The notes beneath the pieces are model-generated. The model searched no databases, was not told the origin of the DNA, and saw only the letters and a program-made list of their open reading frames with translations. A program made the translations under genes and the position numbers. From contig JAURWF010000032.1 in assembly GCA_030655095.1 (NCBI GenBank), positions 1 through 48,776 of the forward strand: a stretch of DNA of 48,776 nt, given 5' to 3'. This DNA is from a bacterium. GTDB lineage: Bacteria; Patescibacteriota; Patescibacteriia; Patescibacteriales; GWC2-42-12. Positions 3,359-44,554 of the stretch are shown in pieces. How positions within the stretch are numbered: the first letter of the stretch is position 1; every line of letters starts with the position of its first letter.

Positions 3359-4624
3359 ATGGCCTATAGAAACGGGTCATTTATTTTTTTTATGTCTGAA
3401 CAAATCAAACAAACAAAATCTGGGTTCGCAGAATTAGGCGTTAACCCATTAGTTTCAAGTGCGCTTGAAACTTTAAATTTAAACTCCCCTACTCCAATTC
3501 AAGCAAAATCAATTCCAGTAATTCTTGCTGGTCAAGATTTAATTGGCGTAGCTCAAACAGGTACTGGAAAAACTTTTGCTTTTGGCATTCCTTTGATAGA
3601 ACGATTAGCTTTTAATAAAGGAAAAGGTCTTGTATTACTCCCGACTCGCGAATTAGCATTACAAGTTGATGAAAATTTAAGAAAATTAGGAAATAAATTT
3701 GGCTTAAGAACAGCCGTCTTAATTGGTGGCGAAGCCATTGGACGTCAAGCACAAAGTCTTAGAAGAAATCCTCATATTTTTATTGCTACTCCAGGAAGAC
3801 TAATTGATCATTTAAAAAGAGGCTGGGTAAAATTAGATGATATTAAAATCTTAGTTTTAGATGAGGCTGATTTAATGCTTGACATGGGATTTGCTCCTCA
3901 AATAGAAGAAATTATTAAACAAACTCCAAAAGAACGACAAGCATTACTGTTTTCCGCAACTATGCCTTTGTCTATTTTAAAACTTGCTTCTTTACATATG
4001 AATTTACCAATTCACATTGAAGTCGCTCCGCAAGGAACAACCGTTGAGCGTGTTGATCAAGAGATTTATGTAATGAGAAAAGAAGACAAATATATCCAAT
4101 TAGAAAAAATTCTTAATCAATTTAATGGAGCTATTTTAATTTTTGCTCGCACTAAGCATGGCGTTAAAGAATTAACCAAAGATCTTAAGACGAGTGGTCA
4201 TAAAGTAGCTGAAATTCATTCTAATCTTTCCTTTAATCAACGTTGTGAATCAATGGCAGGATTTAAAAATAAAAGATATCGGATTTTAATAGCCACTGAC
4301 ATTGCCGCGCGTGGCATAGACGTTAGTAATATAGAATTAGTAGTAAACTATGACTTACCTGATAGTTCAGAGGATTATGTTCATCGCATTGGTCGTACTG
4401 CTAGAGCTGGAAATGTTGGCAAAGCGATTTCTTTTGCAACACCAAATCAAGGAAAAGATATTATTAGTATTGAAAGATTAATTAATAAAAAATTAAATTT
4501 AACAAAATTTGCCGAATTAGAACGGTCTAATACGCGTCCAACATATTCAAGATACGGCAAAACCTCAAGCTTCGGCAGATCAAATACTTCTCGCTCAAAA
4601 CCTAATAACTTTAGAAGAAAATAA
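3359..4624 (+). CDS. DEAD-box ATP-dependent RNA helicase
   Basis: Motifs AQTGTGKT (I), PTRELA (Ia), VLDEADLMLDMGF (II, DEAD), SAT (III), HRIGRTARAG (VI). Basic C-terminal tail. An alternative, more plausible start is ATG 3392 (MSEQIKQTK...). Confidence 0.93.
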   Translation: MAYRNGSFIFFMSEQIKQTKSGFAELGVNPLVSSALETLNLNSPTPIQAKSIPVILAGQDLIGVAQTGTGKTFAFGIPLIERLAFNKGKGLVLLPTRELALQVDENLRKLGNKFGLRTAVLIGGEAIGRQAQSLRRNPHIFIATPGRLIDHLKRGWVKLDDIKILVLDEADLMLDMGFAPQIEEIIKQTPKERQALLFSATMPLSILKLASLHMNLPIHIEVAPQGTTVERVDQEIYVMRKEDKYIQLEKILNQFNGAILIFARTKHGVKELTKDLKTSGHKVAEIHSNLSFNQRCESMAGFKNKRYRILIATDIAARGIDVSNIELVVNYDLPDSSEDYVHRIGRTARAGNVGKAISFATPNQGKDIISIERLINKKLNLTKFAELERSNTRPTYSRYGKTSSFGRSNTSRSKPNNFRRK

Positions 4625-10334: not shown

Positions 10335-11837
10335 ATGAACTATAAAAAAAATAATAATATCCCACTTGTTGTGATATTCGGTCGCGCTAATGTTGGCAAG
10401 TCAACATTATTTAATACATTAATAGAAAAAAAACAAGCATTAGTAACTGATATTCCTGGAACAACGCGCGACAGCAACCTTGGTATTGTAGAATGGCAAC
10501 GTCAAGAATTTAATTTAGTTGACACAGGAGGTATTCTTGACATTAAATGTTTAACTAGCAAATCAGCTAAAACTGATGACATAGAAACTAAAGTGCAACT
10601 ACAGGCGCGTCAATATTTAGCTCAAGCTGATTTAATTTTATTTTTAATAGACAATAAAAGCGGTTTACTATTTCAAGATAAACAATTAGCTCTTTTTTTG
10701 AAAAAAAATGTTGATCAAAATAAAATTCTTTTAGTGGCTAATAAAGTGGACAATCCTAATCAACAATTCAAAACAGCAGAATTTTTTAAACTAGGGCTAG
10801 GACAACCACACGCAATATCTGCTTCTAGTGGCAGTGGAACAGGAGATTTGTTAGATATTATAACTGATAAACTTAGCCAAGCTGGATTAAGCAATACAAC
10901 AAAAGAAGAAGAGAAAGAAGAAGAAGAGGAGGAATATGATGATGATGCGAAAAAAGAGACAGACACAGAAGAAGAAGAGAAAGAAGAAAAAAAAGAAACA
11001 AAAAAAGATATTATTAAAATTTGCATTATTGGTAAGCCAAATGTTGGTAAATCTAGTTTATTAAATTCCATTTTAGGCTATGAACGAGTAATTGTAAGCC
11101 CAATCCCTCACACAACACGCGAACCGCAAGATACAGAAATTATTTATCAAGACAAAAAAATAAAATTAATTGACACTGCAGGAATTAGCAAAAGAGGCAC
11201 AAAAACCAAAGGACTAGAAAAATATGGAATAGAAAAATCTTTAGGAATTTTAGGCAAAGTAGATATTGCCTTATTAGTTTTGGATATAAATGAAGAAATC
11301 ACTCGTCAAGATTCAAAAATAGTTGCAGAAATATTAGACAGGAGAAAAAGTTTAATTTTTATTGCTAATAAATGGGACAAAATAGAAGATAGGGATAGCA
11401 AAAAATATATTGAATATATTTACACCAATCTACCTTTTGCTCAATTTGTACCAATTCAATTTACTTCGGCTTTAACAGGCGAAAAAGTTCAAAAAGTTTT
11501 GGATGTAATCTTACAAATTGCTGAAGAAAGAAAATTATTATTAAGCGATTCACAATTAGATAAATTTTTAGCTCGCATTGTTAAAATTCATAAACCAGCT
11601 AAAGGCAAAGGAGTAAAACATCCTCGCATTTATGAATTAACACAATTTTCTGCTAATCCTCCAAAATTTGAATTACGAATTGGTATTAAAGATAATTTAC
11701 ATTTTTCTTATGTAAGATTTATAGAAAATAGATTACGAGAAAAATTCGGCTTCAGCGGAACCCCAATATCTATAAAAATAAATAAAGGAAGGGAAGAGTC
11801 TATAAAGTCTGTAAAGTCCGTAAAGTCTAAAGTCTAA
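10335..11837 (+). CDS. der: Ribosome-associated GTPase Der/EngA (two G domains + KH-like domain)
   Basis: G1 motifs GRANVGKST and GKPNVGKSS; DTGG/DTAG; NKVD/NKWD. A 37-aa acidic linker lies at aa 189-225. The last ~10 codons (SIKSVKSVKSKV) read into the taaagtc microsatellite. Confidence 0.92.
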   Translation: MNYKKNNNIPLVVIFGRANVGKSTLFNTLIEKKQALVTDIPGTTRDSNLGIVEWQRQEFNLVDTGGILDIKCLTSKSAKTDDIETKVQLQARQYLAQADLILFLIDNKSGLLFQDKQLALFLKKNVDQNKILLVANKVDNPNQQFKTAEFFKLGLGQPHAISASSGSGTGDLLDIITDKLSQAGLSNTTKEEEKEEEEEEYDDDAKKETDTEEEEKEEKKETKKDIIKICIIGKPNVGKSSLLNSILGYERVIVSPIPHTTREPQDTEIIYQDKKIKLIDTAGISKRGTKTKGLEKYGIEKSLGILGKVDIALLVLDINEEITRQDSKIVAEILDRRKSLIFIANKWDKIEDRDSKKYIEYIYTNLPFAQFVPIQFTSALTGEKVQKVLDVILQIAEERKLLLSDSQLDKFLARIVKIHKPAKGKGVKHPRIYELTQFSANPPKFELRIGIKDNLHFSYVRFIENRLREKFGFSGTPISIKINKGREESIKSVKSVKSKV

Positions 11838-11898
11838 AGTCTAAAGTCTGTAAAGTCCGTAAAGTCTAAAGTCTAAAGTCTAAAGTCTGTAAAGTCTA
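11801..11898. repeat. taaagtc(t/c)(g) microsatellite, about 12 units
   Basis: tataaagtctgtaaagtccgtaaagtctaaagtctaaagtctaaagtctgtaaagtccgtaaagtctaaagtctaaagtctaaagtctgtaaagtcta. Confidence 0.9.
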
Positions 11899-12024
11899 TT
11901 TCAAAGTTTCATTGTTTTTAAAAAACATTTCTCCCTTTTGTCATCTTGAACCCGCGCATTTGGCGGGTGAAAGATCTATAATACTTGATACTTCCACATA
12001 ATTTATTTTTTACGCTTATTAGGT

Positions 12025-12164
12025 CTATTGTTGCGAAGAGCCTGCAATCAGACGAACGCGGATCCTTCGCTTTACTCGGGACAGGCTCCGCAGTCTCTGA
12101 TTAAGAGACGCGTCCATTAATTTTTACCGAAGATTGCTTCGCACGATTACGTGACTCGCAATAG
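12025..12164. repeat. Palindromic GC-richer element, family 3 (...attgcga... / ...tcgcaat...), nested in the MITE-like element
   Basis: ctattgttgcgaagagcctgcaatcagacgaacgcg ... tctctgattaagagacgcg ... gattgcttcgcacgattacgtgactcgcaatag. Homologous to 23348-23457 (shared tctctgattaagagac core) and 33511-33605. Confidence 0.75.
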
Positions 12165-12268
12165 CAATGGCAATACAAATTACAAATTTATTAAAGCGCG
12201 GAATTGATATTACTTTTCTAATTTAATTAGCTTGGCAAAATAACAATCTATCATAGATCTCTCACCCC

Positions 12269-12384
12269 GATTACGGGGTTCGAGATGACAAAAGAGAGAT
12301 TACGAGGTTCGAGATGACAAAAGGGAGATTACATGATTCGAAATGACAAAAGGGAGATTACGAGGTTCGAGATGACAAAAGGGA
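12269..12384. repeat. 29-bp x4 tandem repeat inside the right TIR
   Basis: Unit gattacgaggttcgagatgacaaaaggga at 12269, 12298, 12327 and 12356. Copies 2 and 4 are identical. Confidence 0.9.
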
Positions 12385-12503
12385 GAAATGTTTTTTAAAA
12401 ATAATTAAGATTGAGAATAGAATTCAAGAAGTCCGTAAAGTCTAAAGTTATTGCTAGAAGATTTATGATTAAAGTGATGTGGCAATCTCTTTAAATTAAA
12501 AAT

Positions 12504-13055: not shown

Positions 13056-13102
13056 ACAAACAATTTGAAAATTAACTTAAGCCAAAAATTACTTTTTGTG
13101 GT

Positions 13103-13152
13103 AAAAAAAATAAGAGAGGTGCGATCTATATTATATCGCAAAGCCCTCTCTT
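13103..13152 (-). terminator. Rho-independent terminator of the small minus-strand operon
   Basis: Minus strand reads aagagagggctttgcgatataatatagatcgcacctctctta followed by tttttttt. Outer stem aagagagg/cctctctt, inner stem gcgat/atcgc. It lies 25 nt after the stop at 13176. Confidence 0.7.
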
Positions 13153-13175
13153 TATATGACCCATTCGCTTCATAT

Positions 13176-13379
13176 TCACATAGCTTCAGATGCTCTGTCT
13201 CTTGCCCACTTGATACACCCGTCGCAACAACGAGTGAACGAATTATTATTCTCCTTGCGGTTTGGCTTGAGACCAAAACGCTCTCCCACAAAAAACAACA
13301 AGCCAGAAAGAACCCCATCTTCAAAAAAATCTTTTAAGCTTGTCTTTATCTCATGGATGGTGTTTTGTCTTCTCTCCAT
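13176..13379 (-). CDS. Hypothetical 67-aa protein (third gene of small operon)
   Basis: Its ATG overlaps the upstream stop (TAATG at 13377-13381). It ends just before the terminator. No recognisable family. Confidence 0.5.
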   Translation of the reverse strand: MERRQNTIHEIKTSLKDFFEDGVLSGLLFFVGERFGLKPNRKENNNSFTRCCDGCIKWARDRASEAM

Positions 13380-13603
13380 TACAAAAAAACTTTGTGATTT
13401 TTTAAGTCTCTTCCTAATAAGAAAAGACTATGTTCTATCGACAAAACTATTTCTTTGTAGCACTTGCGGACTACACCGTCCGCACTAATAAAATATGTCA
13501 TATCGTAACCGTCTACTGGCGATGCATAAAGCACCGCATACTCTAATTTCCTGTTTCCCATCGCCGACCTTATTTTTAATTCCAAGATACGTTCTTTTAA
13601 CAT
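13379..13603 (-). CDS. Hypothetical 74-aa protein (second gene of small operon)
   Basis: Strong SD AGGAGGG (complement of 13611-17), 7 nt before the ATG. No recognisable family. Confidence 0.55.
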   Translation of the reverse strand: MLKERILELKIRSAMGNRKLEYAVLYASPVDGYDMTYFISADGVVRKCYKEIVLSIEHSLFLLGRDLKNHKVFL

Positions 13604-13626
13604 GATGATACCCTCCTACTTTTTAT

Positions 13627-13734
13627 TCAAACTCTCACTTCTTTTTTTTCGTCAATTACCCCTAACTGATAACCGACAATCCCTGCCACCACAGCCAATA
13701 GCCAAGGAGCAAAGACATTAATTAAATCTCCCAT
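13627..13734 (-). CDS. 35-aa single-TM peptide (not in ORF track)
   Basis: Hand translation gives MGDLINVFAPWLLAVVAGIVGYQLGVIDEKKEVRV, ending in TGA. SD AAGGAGGT lies 6-7 nt upstream (complement of 13742-13749). Confidence 0.5.
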   Translation of the reverse strand: MGDLINVFAPWLLAVVAGIVGYQLGVIDEKKEVRV

Positions 13735-13740
13735 TTCATT

Positions 13741-13880
13741 TACCTCCTTTTTTTACTTGAATAATCTACAAAATTTCACCTAAGAGCCAGAGACTTGCCC
13801 CATTTGAGGTTCCGGCCAAAACCAGGAGGAGGTTTTAGTTTTCACCACTCCTAGGCAAAATTTTGTAGATTATTTTTTTA
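13741..13880 (-). promoter_or_regulatory. Highly structured ~140-nt 5' leader / possible ncRNA with an anti-SD loop
   Basis: Perfect 17-bp closing stem, 13760-13776 with 13858-13874 (aataatctacaaaattt / aaattttgtagattatt). An inner hairpin aaaacc-UCCUCCU-ggtttt (13817-13836) presents CCUCCU, which is complementary to the downstream GGAGG SD. Confidence 0.5.
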
Positions 13881-13910
13881 ATTTTCAAAGAACTTTTTGC
13901 TTAATAGAAC

Positions 13911-13939
13911 AGTATGACACACCTTTATATCCCTGTCAA
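13911..13939 (-). promoter_or_regulatory. Sigma70-like promoter for the small operon
   Basis: Minus strand reads TTGACA (13934-13939), 17-nt spacer, CATACT (13911-13916). Confidence 0.4.
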
Positions 13940-13990
13940 GCATTTTTAATATTTAATCGTAGAGGGTATAATGTATAATGTGATTTTATC

Positions 13991-14250
13991 GTTGTTTAAT
14001 GACAGGGCGGGGGCAAGCCCCGCCCCTACGGTGAAATTATTATAAACGATCCCTGAAATTATTATTATAAACGATCCCTGAAATAAAATATAAATTCCGG
14101 TAGGGGCGCCCGTATTTTTAAAATGTAAATAAAAATAACAAATTCCGGTAGGGGCGCCCCTTGCGGGCGCCCAATTCTTGGCAGGATGATTATTTAAATA
14201 ACATTGTTTGATGACAGGGCGGGGGCAAGCCCCGCCCCTACGGTGAAATA
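13991..14250. repeat. Cluster of GC-rich hairpins with nested direct repeats, family 4
   Basis: A 45-bp direct repeat ttgttt[a/g]atgacagggcgggggcaagccccgcccctacggtgaaat occurs at 13991 and 14205. Between the copies lie tattataaacgatccctgaaat x2 and aaattccggtaggggcgccc x2, the second extended to hairpin ggggcgcccc-ttgc-gggcgccc. Confidence 0.85.
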
Positions 14251-14331: not shown

Positions 14332-14691
14332 TTAGCTAATAATTCTAATTTTATTTTTACCAATAATAGCAAGACGATTTTTGAGTCCACCACTATTTTC
14401 CATAGCATTAAGAAAATTAATAATAGCAATAATAATTTCGTCTTTATTAAATTGCCCAACTAAAATAATAATTATTCCAAAACAACGAGAAATATTAAAA
14501 CGAAAAATATCACCAAAACCACGATCAAAAGTCAAAAGAATTCTTTTGCTTTGACAAGCAAAATTAAAAACACAATCATCATTAGCTTTAGCTAAGTTTG
14601 CTTCTCGGACAGTTAAAACATCAAATCCACTTTTTCTAAGAGCAATTACAACATCTCCGTGTATACATTCATCAATAAAAAATTTAATCAT
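14332..14691 (-). CDS. DUF5615 (PIN-like / Mut7-C-like) putative toxin
   Basis: 119 aa. MIKFFIDECI...GFDV...ANDDCVFNFACQSKRILLTFDRGFGD matches the DUF5615 pattern. Sits immediately downstream of a DUF433 gene. Confidence 0.75.
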   Translation of the reverse strand: MIKFFIDECIHGDVVIALRKSGFDVLTVREANLAKANDDCVFNFACQSKRILLTFDRGFGDIFRFNISRCFGIIIILVGQFNKDEIIIAIINFLNAMENSGGLKNRLAIIGKNKIRIIS

Positions 14692-14697
14692 AAAAAT

Positions 14698-14946
14698 TTA
14701 GCAAGATTTAATCTCCAATACTTCTTCTTTACCAAGAACACTAGCTGCATAATTAAGAGCGACTCTTGCTTTAGCCGTAGTAATCCCAGGATATTGAGTA
14801 GGAATATCTTTAATAACATATCCCATTTGTAAAAGCTGAAGAATATCAGTAATAGCAACTCGCGTTCCTTTAATACAAGGCTTTCCAAAACGAACGTCCT
14901 GTTTAACAGCAATACCTTTAGGAAAATTAATTTTAGCAATTTTCAT
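14698..14946 (-). CDS. DUF433 putative antitoxin
   Basis: 82 aa. DVRFGKPCIKGTRVAITDILQLLQMGYVIKDIPTQYPGITTAKARVALNYA is the DUF433 signature. Confidence 0.8.
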   Translation of the reverse strand: MKIAKINFPKGIAVKQDVRFGKPCIKGTRVAITDILQLLQMGYVIKDIPTQYPGITTAKARVALNYAASVLGKEEVLEIKSC

Positions 14947-15834: not shown

Positions 15835-16242
15835 CTATTTTTGCACTTTTTTAAGCGCTTCTTCTATTTCTTCCTGTTTTTCTAAAAGCTGTTGCTCTTT
15901 TAACATCAGCTTTTCTATTAAGCTCTCTTTTGTCTCTTGGCTCAACTTCCCCAAAAAACATGGGGTGTCAAAATAATTTTCATCACCTTCTACCGCAACC
16001 ATTTCAAGAAATCCACAAGCGAACACCGAGGGATATCCTCGTGGCACTTTATAACTGCAAGCAAAATGACAATTTCCACAGAGATCAAATACCGTTTCTT
16101 TTTTTTCAAACTTACCATCTTTAAAAATGGCTAGCATATCATCTATTTCTTTTATCGAAGAAGAAACTTTTTTCAATTTCTGTTTTGACCAAGGTTCAAC
16201 AACCTCGTCCCAAAGACCAGATTCCATAATCAACTCAATCAT
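15835..16242 (-). CDS. Hypothetical Cys-containing protein with coiled-coil tail
   Basis: 135 aa. CGNCHFAC...FACGF...TPC. SD GGGAGG lies upstream. Locally higher GC than its neighbours. Confidence 0.55.
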   Translation of the reverse strand: MIELIMESGLWDEVVEPWSKQKLKKVSSSIKEIDDMLAIFKDGKFEKKETVFDLCGNCHFACSYKVPRGYPSVFACGFLEMVAVEGDENYFDTPCFLGKLSQETKESLIEKLMLKEQQLLEKQEEIEEALKKVQK

Positions 16243-16457
16243 AAAAACCTCCCAACAATACTAAATCTTTTGCAATTTATTAAAATTGCAGTTGCGTAGC
16301 AACTTTTTGATTAAAATAAAAAAATAATTTAAACCAAAAAACTGCTACGCAATAAAAAATTATTTATAAAGAACAATTGTTTATACAAATTTGGAAAAAT
16401 ATTCCAGATTATGCTATTGTTGTATTAACTAATTAACCCTAACCTAAATTAAAAAAT

Positions 16458-44017: not shown

Positions 44018-44554
44018 ATGTTTAGATGTTTGTTTGTTTGTATTTGTTTTTGTATTTTCTTGAGCGAAGCTAAGATCGTGTCTGCGGACGACACAATCCT
44101 GGGGGCACTCATCGATCTAGCGATGTGTCCGAAGGAGGAAATACCAAAAATCTTAAACGCGCGGTTTGAGATAGAAGAGATTTTACAGGGAAAAAAAATC
44201 CCTTGTAAAAAAGTAACTCTACAGAAAGAAAGGCTGCAAATTGTCGTTGGGCAAAATGAGTTCTGTTTTTACTGGGGAGAAAAGAATCCCAAAAAAAACA
44301 GCGTTTTTTTGCTAAGAATCAACAACAGCCCGACAAGATGCATTTGGGGGGAAGACGAAAAGGACTGGAATGATTACAAACTTTTCTTGAAGATGGATAA
44401 CGAGCAAAAAGAGGTTTTTCTTCGTGCATATTTCGAGAAATATGCAAAGATCAAAATTCCTTATCCAAACCCAGCACCTCCTTGTCCATGGACAGTACCA
44501 GCCACTACAACGACGACCAGCACATCTGGTCAACCAGCGATCCACGGCCAATAA
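44018..44554 (+). CDS. Hypothetical secreted protein (GC-richer, SD-bearing)
   Basis: 178 aa. SD GGAGGT 6 nt before the ATG. Signal peptide MFRCLFVCICFCIFLSEAKIVSA. Thr/Pro-rich tail. Confidence 0.65.
   Translation: MFRCLFVCICFCIFLSEAKIVSADDTILGALIDLAMCPKEEIPKILNARFEIEEILQGKKIPCKKVTLQKERLQIVVGQNEFCFYWGEKNPKKNSVFLLRINNSPTRCIWGEDEKDWNDYKLFLKMDNEQKEVFLRAYFEKYAKIKIPYPNPAPPCPWTVPATTTTTSTSGQPAIHGQ

Follow-up and report, generated by a model that had tools for sequence, protein, structure and literature searches.

Contig JAURWF010000032.1 of the Patescibacteria assembly GCA_030655095.1 was analyzed over its full length of 48,776 nt, referred to here as the window. Positions 13761-13874 on the minus strand, together with their promoter, were found to be a member of an uncatalogued family of structured RNAs of about 114 nt from a clade of the Patescibacteria. 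The apical loop of this RNA has the core sequence of the 16S anti-Shine-Dalgarno (anti-SD). The RNA is associated with downstream genes that are led by Shine-Dalgarno (SD) sequences. In the lineage of the window a segment of about 0.66 kb with atypical composition has replaced the native terminator of the RNA, and this segment encodes three small open reading frames (ORFs).

A conserved RNA family in Patescibacteria

The RNA gene comprises the following features.

13911-13939, minus strand: sigma-70-type promoter of the RNA gene, TTGACA (13939-13934), 17 nt and CATACT (13916-13911) with a TG extension, 10/12 match
13761-13874, minus strand: type A anti-SD-loop RNA of about 114 nt, with a 27-bp helix P1, a 3-bp P2a, a 9-bp P2 and a 5-bp P3
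13824-13830, minus strand: apical (P2) loop UCCUCCU, for which the family consensus is CCCUCCU; its core is the same as the 16S anti-SD

We infer a transcription start site near 13904. The -35 box, the spacer, the -10 box and the following GTTyTATTAAG were kept in the alignment with L113, the closest relative, and with a second related locus, L092. The pattern TTGACA-17-TAAnAT was located 15-19 nt upstream of the RNA in at least 19 related loci. P1 is formed by the pairing of 13848-13874 with 13760-13786 and includes a perfect 17-bp stem as its core. The 201-nt leader folded at -56 kcal/mol (z = -4.9) and none of 200 shuffled sequences folded as well. The three-way junction is conserved, including the junction nucleotides. 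The most conserved feature of the family is the CUCCU of the apical loop, which was invariant in all 42 aligned homologues. CUAGGAG atop P1 was likewise invariant.

The region was compared by blastn to 80 loci that had been fetched through the protein Pth. The structured segment alone matched, and in every case it lay on the strand opposite to pth, directly downstream of that gene. A covariance model (CM), R1, was built from six copies, of which the window sequence was one, and a metagenome scan with a conserved-core pattern added 43 contigs. R1 gave one strong match per locus (60-123 bits) in 52 loci besides the window. These included a Falkowbacteria metagenome-assembled genome (MAG) and, with a weaker match, a Doudnabacteria MAG. 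The window RNA scored 100.6 bits (E ~1e-24) over model positions 1-114, compared to 34 bits for the opposite strand.

Covariation was assessed over 42 distinct sequences. Pairing was retained in 93.3% of pair cells compared to 33-55% with slid partners. Double-sided changes were present in 31 of the 44 base pairs, all four helices covaried, and the observed values were not reached in any of 500 shuffles. The frequent G-U pairs and the asymmetry of 100 vs 34 bits between the strands fix which strand is transcribed.

Searching the whole window with Rfam 15 (4,227 CMs) at the gathering threshold returned five tRNAs only. At E <= 10 the region gave scattered sub-threshold matches, and across 20 homologous loci no Rfam family consistently overlapped the RNA. 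No known riboswitch model matched. No copy was found in viral contigs, and literature searches turned up no account of an RNA of this kind in Patescibacteria. The signal recognition particle RNA, 6S, 5S, Y RNA, tmRNA and known riboswitches were considered and rejected on architecture and on the lack of an Rfam signal. A generic metabolite riboswitch was also rejected, based on the many loci with no downstream gene (about 40 of 53), the unrelated nature of the genes that do follow the RNA and the 27-bp length of P1.

The RNA is single-copy in the window and syntenic across relatives whose Pth is 45-81% identical. It is convergent with pth in nearly all loci. The RNA was 40-100 nt from the pth stop in about 40 of the 53 loci, with a terminator hairpin between the two and no gene behind the RNA. 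A tRNA-Pro followed the RNA directly in a few loci. Because the family is conserved and has its own promoter and, usually, its own terminator, the RNA is an autonomous small-RNA gene and not a leader made for the ORFs that follow it in the window.

A sibling RNA of about 110 nt, termed type B, was also identified. Its P1 is long and shares its basal sequence with type A, and its apical loop, UUCCUCCUU, contains CCUCC. At least 45 loci (for example L089 4631-4741, L097 8055-8164 and L003 9261-9369) carry type B in tandem with type A, on the upstream side. The window, L113 and L092 have no type B.

SD-led genes and the insert behind the RNA

The genes behind the RNA were counted over 43 distinct RNA variants, taking co-directional ORFs of at least 80 codons that start no more than 150 nt from the RNA. 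Ten variants had such an ORF. One was an artefact inside a tRNA, leaving nine real cargo ORFs, and a strong SD was present in all nine compared to 1 of 84 flanking ORFs (>=150 codons). For the clade overall an SD was present in 14 of 306 ORFs. At least six independent and unrelated cargo types were found and all are SD-led, counting the ORFs of the window and a DUF218 gene that starts with TTG. The types are a family of about 100 aa, a HAD hydrolase, a DUF218 protein, an 87-aa protein, a family of about 300 aa and the window ORFs. The family of about 100 aa was fetched independently through its protein, and the RNA was located 72-82 nt upstream in 5/5 contigs. It had no Pfam or PDB match; an AlphaFold2 (AF2) model had a predicted local distance difference test (pLDDT) score of 75 and gave no Foldseek match against the PDB. 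Several cargo genes have a host-like GC content at third codon positions (GC3), so foreignness alone is insufficient to account for the cargo SDs.

The cargo of the window is contained in an insert with the following features.

13076-13760, minus strand: lineage-specific insert of about 0.66 kb that separates the RNA from pth, with an exact right edge and an approximate left edge
13627-13734, minus strand: ORF35, single-transmembrane (TM) peptide with a charged tail, MGDLINVFAPWLLAVVAGIVGYQLGVIDEKKEVRV; SD GGAGG at 13743-13747, 8 nt before the ATG
13379-13603, minus strand: ORF74, orphan; SD AGGAGGG at 13611-13617, 7 nt before the ATG
13176-13379, minus strand: ORF67, orphan without an SD, coupled to ORF74 by a TAATG overlap
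13101-13152, minus strand: intrinsic terminator of the insert; hairpin at 13112-13152 of -18.2 kcal/mol followed by UUAUUUUUUUU (UUAU8)

The insert is absent in L113 and L092. The Pth of L113 is 81% identical to that of the window and its Der has the same acidic insertion. In L113 the RNA and the pth stop are separated by 97 nt with no ORF. Homology covers the promoter and the RNA in the alignment. It breaks off precisely where P1 finishes on its 3' side (13761), and picks up again near 13064-13075 at a distance of about 20 nt from the pth stop. It is due to the insert that the gap between RNA and pth is 709 nt in the window and not 40-100 nt. The terminator hairpin was overlooked by a simple terminator scanner owing to its internal loop. 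In L092 two copies of a MITE-like (miniature inverted-repeat transposable element) repeat of about 190 nt (GGGTCTGTCGCCGAATACCGTATTCG...GAGTATTCGGCGATAGACCC) are located directly behind the RNA at 3620-3990; the same slot therefore draws other insertions.

An earlier note on this DNA, made from its sequence, had described these elements as a self-contained and compositionally foreign operon. The parts were all located as described, namely the promoter of the minus strand at 13939-13911, the leader closed by the 17-bp stem, the inner loop complementary to the downstream GGAGG, the 35-aa TM peptide, the 74-aa ORF with AGGAGGG, the 67-aa ORF coupled by TAATG and the hairpin with a U8 terminator. 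The unit itself was not upheld, as the promoter and leader are an RNA gene present in 52 other contigs and homology stops at the 3' end of the stem. Conservation among homologues was likewise divided. It was strong for the stem, as seen in the 31 pairs with double changes, and absent for the ORFs, none of which was found elsewhere. The direction of the claimed compositional difference was correct and its size was overstated. The mean GC content of the window is 31.4% (standard deviation 3.6) over 48.8 kb, compared to 38.0% for the insert, which ranks in the top 4% of windows of equal size and has flanks of 27-29%. GC3 is also raised, at 0.33-0.44 for ORF35, ORF74 and ORF67 compared to 0.195 for the window genes. 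The statement that neighboring genes lack an SD was borne out, with an SD-like motif in only 3 of the 41 large ORFs of the window.

Of all frames in the insert those of the three ORFs scored best, and the SDs of two of them are at an ideal distance. ORF35 had a gene-like codon score (0.51 bit/codon), ORF74 and ORF67 scored 0.12 and 0.06 bit/codon, and alternative frames ranged from -0.1 to -0.65. A run of seven T residues at 13383-13389 (minus strand) is located immediately before the ORF74 stop and forms a U UUU UUG -1 slippery heptamer (junction GUUUUUUUGUAAUG). A -1 shift or a homopolymer sequencing error at this run would fuse ORF74 and ORF67 into a 142-aa product.

Pfam, PHROGs, PADLOC and NCBIfam scans of the three ORFs returned no significant match, and PDB sequence searches with them gave none. 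For ORF35 there were no Pfam families at E <= 1 and no matches among PDB chain sequences at E <= 10; the best family match was a PHROG holin at only E = 0.012. Word-indexed homology searches of 5.8 billion proteins gave no candidates for ORF74 or ORF67. When ORF74 was searched exhaustively with HMMER in a set of 1.84 billion representatives, the only matches were two low-complexity repeat proteins, judged spurious. No match at E <= 0.1 was obtained when the three ORFs were compared by tblastn to all fetched related loci, and no relative of the insert was found in viral contigs and a phage collection. The view of the earlier note that the two partner proteins have no known family agrees with the lack of homologues of ORF74 and ORF67 in all of these searches. 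The AF2 model of ORF74 was a two-helix hairpin of low confidence (pLDDT 64). Assignment of ORF74 as a homing endonuclease of the NUMOD4 type was rejected, with a Pfam score of 13.5 bits compared to a cut-off of 23.4 (E = 0.085). Judged from their sequences the three ORFs are probably young accessory genes that were recently acquired and to which sequence assigns no function. ORF35 looks like a small single-pass membrane peptide.

Other features of the window

The genes encoded in the window include those for Der, Pth, ClpP, TIM, EF-P and phosphoenolpyruvate-utilising enzymes. The window Pth is nearest to proteins of Patescibacteria MAGs, and identity among GTDB genomes is <=72%. The Der protein has a long acidic insertion rich in E, D and K between its two GTPase domains, common to the window and L113. 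Tandem 7-nt AAGTCTA repeats make up the 3' end of der and the sequence beyond it at 11820-11900 (plus strand), encoding a tail of SVKSVKSKV.

Only two other window genes are clearly SD-led. One is located at 15835-16242 (minus strand) with GGGAGG and the other at 44018-44554 (plus strand) with GGAGG. Their SDs are 5-6 nt 5' of the ATG. Both products are orphans without a Pfam match, and the GC3 values of the genes are 0.32 and 0.44, respectively, compared to 0.195.

Several further elements surround the RNA and pth. A MITE-like element is located between der and pth at 11915-12400, with terminal inverted repeats AAAAAACATTTCTCCCTTTTGTCATCTTGAACC and GGTTCGAGATGACAAAAGGGAGAAATGTTTTTT and four tandem subterminal copies of about 30 nt (GATTACGAGGTTCGAGATGACAAAAGGGA) at about 12268-12385. 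The two genes are adjacent or overlapping in the relatives L113 and L124. A local block of repeats that is rich in GC (44%) is located at 13987-14250, a short way upstream of the RNA promoter. It holds a pair of 51-nt repeats that include the hairpin GGGCGGGG-CUUG-CCCCCGCCC, and also GGGCGCCCCTACCGGAATT twice and a 24-nt repeat, ATTATTATAAACGATCCCTGAAAT, twice. The block did not occur again in the window, and its 29-nt hairpin core was not found in 123 fetched loci. Between this block and clpP a DUF433/DUF5615 (PIN-like) gene pair is located at 14332-14946 (minus strand). The pair has host-like GC3 and no SD, and is presumably a type II toxin-antitoxin module.

Possible function of the RNA and its meaning

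The likeliest model, which we favor with modest confidence from the sequence comparisons, is that the RNA acts as an anti-SD small RNA (sRNA) or leader gating the translation of SD-led genes, and that the ORFs of the insert ride on the RNA promoter. The CCUCC of the loop would pair with GGAGG SDs and so limit or time the access of the 30S subunit to the few SD-led mRNAs of genomes whose host genes hardly ever use an SD. The predicted loop-SD duplexes were about -12 kcal/mol for ORF35, ORF74 and the SD-led orphan genes at 16252 and 44007. The RNA could act in cis on whichever gene stands behind it, in this case ORF35 and ORF74, and would probably act in trans on other SD-led mRNAs. The SD-led genes at 15835-16242 and 44018-44554 are possible trans targets of the loop as modeled. 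Because the insert removed the native terminator, the three ORFs are expected to be expressed by read-through from the RNA promoter, and a single RNA-ORF35-ORF74-ORF67 transcript would end at 13101-13152. The 27-bp P1 would be a plausible RNase III or other processing site at which a stable sRNA could be split from the mRNA. The anti-SD logic that the earlier note had proposed was retained for the structured RNA and for the relation of loop to SD, which is strengthened by at least six SD-led lineages; the leader is not dedicated to ORF35.

A number of points weigh against translational gating. The metatranscriptome contigs for L113 had a flat depth similar to that of the DNA run and were uninformative about expression. 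Neither the loop nor the SDs vary, which puts their pairing beyond a test by covariation, and no 16S gene was present in the window or the fetched loci with which the clade's own anti-SD could be compared to the loop. The SD of ORF35 is only 13 nt past the base of a 27-bp helix, which makes contact between loop and SD in cis sterically awkward. As a gene behind the RNA is lacking in most members of the family, cis control is not the main role of the RNA, and any such role would come second to one in trans or of another kind. The SDs of the cargo could reflect foreign origin or a need to initiate beside a very stable structure. The three ORFs are without homologues, and weak codon scores were obtained for ORF74 and ORF67, so they may not be expressed proteins.

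The main rival to gating by the loop is that the RNA does something unrelated and that the slot behind it merely collects genes. The RNA would then be a housekeeping sRNA with a loop that binds a protein or the ribosome and is unrelated to the downstream SDs. The slot would be a permissive and highly transcribed landing pad, and the insert a decaying foreign fragment with non-functional ORFs. The presence in most loci of the RNA alone, followed by its own terminator or by a tRNA, fits this account, as do the status of the three ORFs as complete orphans, the weak codon scores of ORF74 and ORF67 and the crowding of the neighborhood by other insertions (the MITE-like element, the GC-rich repeat block and the toxin-antitoxin pair). 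It is nevertheless doubtful, as all nine real cargo ORFs are SD-led compared to a background of 1-5%, several have host-like GC3, and the window ORFs take the best-scoring frames of the insert, two with ideally spaced SDs.

A broader form of gating, which we put forward only tentatively and consider rather unlikely, is that the sibling RNAs of types A and B, if abundant, form a class-specific translational gate. They would silence SD-bearing mRNAs or, as an adaptor, license them, the mRNAs being those of rare accessory or foreign genes including integrants behind the RNA.

A cis-regulatory sensor is improbable. The RNA would in that case be a riboswitch or protein-binding leader that controls read-through, either into the cargo or, in loci lacking cargo, into antisense transcription of the convergent pth. 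The conserved three-way junction with its junction nucleotides, the constant convergence with pth, the terminator directly behind the RNA and the tight RNA-cargo operon in 5/5 independently fetched loci are consistent with such a sensor. A 27-bp P1, however, is unable to serve as the helix of a switch, the cargo genes are heterogeneous in function, some loci have a tRNA-Pro directly behind the RNA and no known riboswitch model matches.

The earlier note had likened the 35-aa peptide to a type I toxin or holin. It is very improbable that the region is a foreign module complete in itself, with an SD-sequestering leader dedicated to the control of a type I toxin-like or holin-like peptide and two partners. 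The shape of ORF35, in which one TM segment precedes a charged tail, its weak PHROG holin match (E = 0.012) and the complementarity of the loop to the SD are what such a module would be expected to have. However, 52 loci keep the leader but have none of these ORFs, and the ORFs, including the peptide, were found nowhere else. ORF35 had no match to Fst or another toxin family in Pfam or the PDB, and BLASTP of ORF35 against an Fst sequence gave no alignment. No promoter or terminator was predicted on the plus strand at 13100-13900 by a consensus scan that is itself insensitive, leaving no predicted antisense promoter. Two further cistrons after a type I toxin would be atypical, and with regard to a phage holin no endolysin or other phage gene was located nearby.

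A MITE or other palindrome acting at the DNA level is scarcely credible despite the 27-bp AT-rich inverted repeat and the other MITE-like elements nearby, as the element is single-copy in the window and syntenic across relatives with Pth 45-81% identical, each of the four helices is kept paired by compensatory changes, an RNA is indicated by the abundant G-U pairs and by CM scores of 100 vs 34 bits on the two strands, the promoter is conserved and viral contigs lack it.

Small RNAs with C-rich or UCCC loops that mask SD sites include RsaE/RoxS and RNAIII in Staphylococcus and Bacillus and the LhrC siblings in Listeria. Type A resembles these in its unpaired C/U-rich apical loop, which is complementary to GGAGG and conserved across type A homologues, in the tandem sibling copies (type A and type B) and in having its own promoter and terminator. 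It differs in that it resembles those Rfam families neither in sequence nor by CM, and in its structure, a single seed loop on a three-way junction with a 27-bp closing stem. Its host clade also barely uses SDs, and an SD-led gene is often located directly downstream and is presumably co-transcribed.

The 6S RNA gene ssrS and ygfA are a known case of a stable sRNA that shares a transcript with an ORF downstream and is freed from it by processing. Type A is similarly a conserved sRNA gene with a long closing stem whose transcript can run on into a coding gene. Unlike 6S RNA it has no central bubble, is only 114 nt, has no Rfam 6S match and is followed by a variable gene. The Fst/Ldr type I loci, such as par of pAD1, share with the window a hydrophobic peptide of about 35 aa with a charged C-terminus behind a structured 5' region able to occlude the SD. 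The window differs from them in having no Fst similarity, no predicted antisense RNA gene, a 5' structure that is an independent conserved gene and two more cistrons. Riboswitch expression platforms and the ROSE and fourU thermometers also place an anti-SD upstream of an SD on the same transcript, as type A would. In type A, in contrast, the anti-SD is in the loop of an autonomous and very stable fold 60-200 nt from the SD, and most members have no gene to regulate.

Patescibacteria, which are also called the candidate phyla radiation (CPR), account for a large part of the diversity of bacteria, and to our knowledge almost nothing is known of their regulatory RNAs. The analysis yielded a well-supported new structured RNA family and a sibling, a covariance model and an invariant anti-SD loop that can be tested. 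It also yielded a genomic rule, in that the genes behind the RNA carry SDs and the rest of the genome does not. For annotation, the promoter and leader should not be labelled an operon with the three orphan ORFs. If the loop gates SD-led translation, it would show how an SD-independent system handles SD-dependent and possibly foreign genes. If the sibling RNAs do gate SD-bearing mRNAs, they would be an RNA-level counterpart of xenogeneic silencing.

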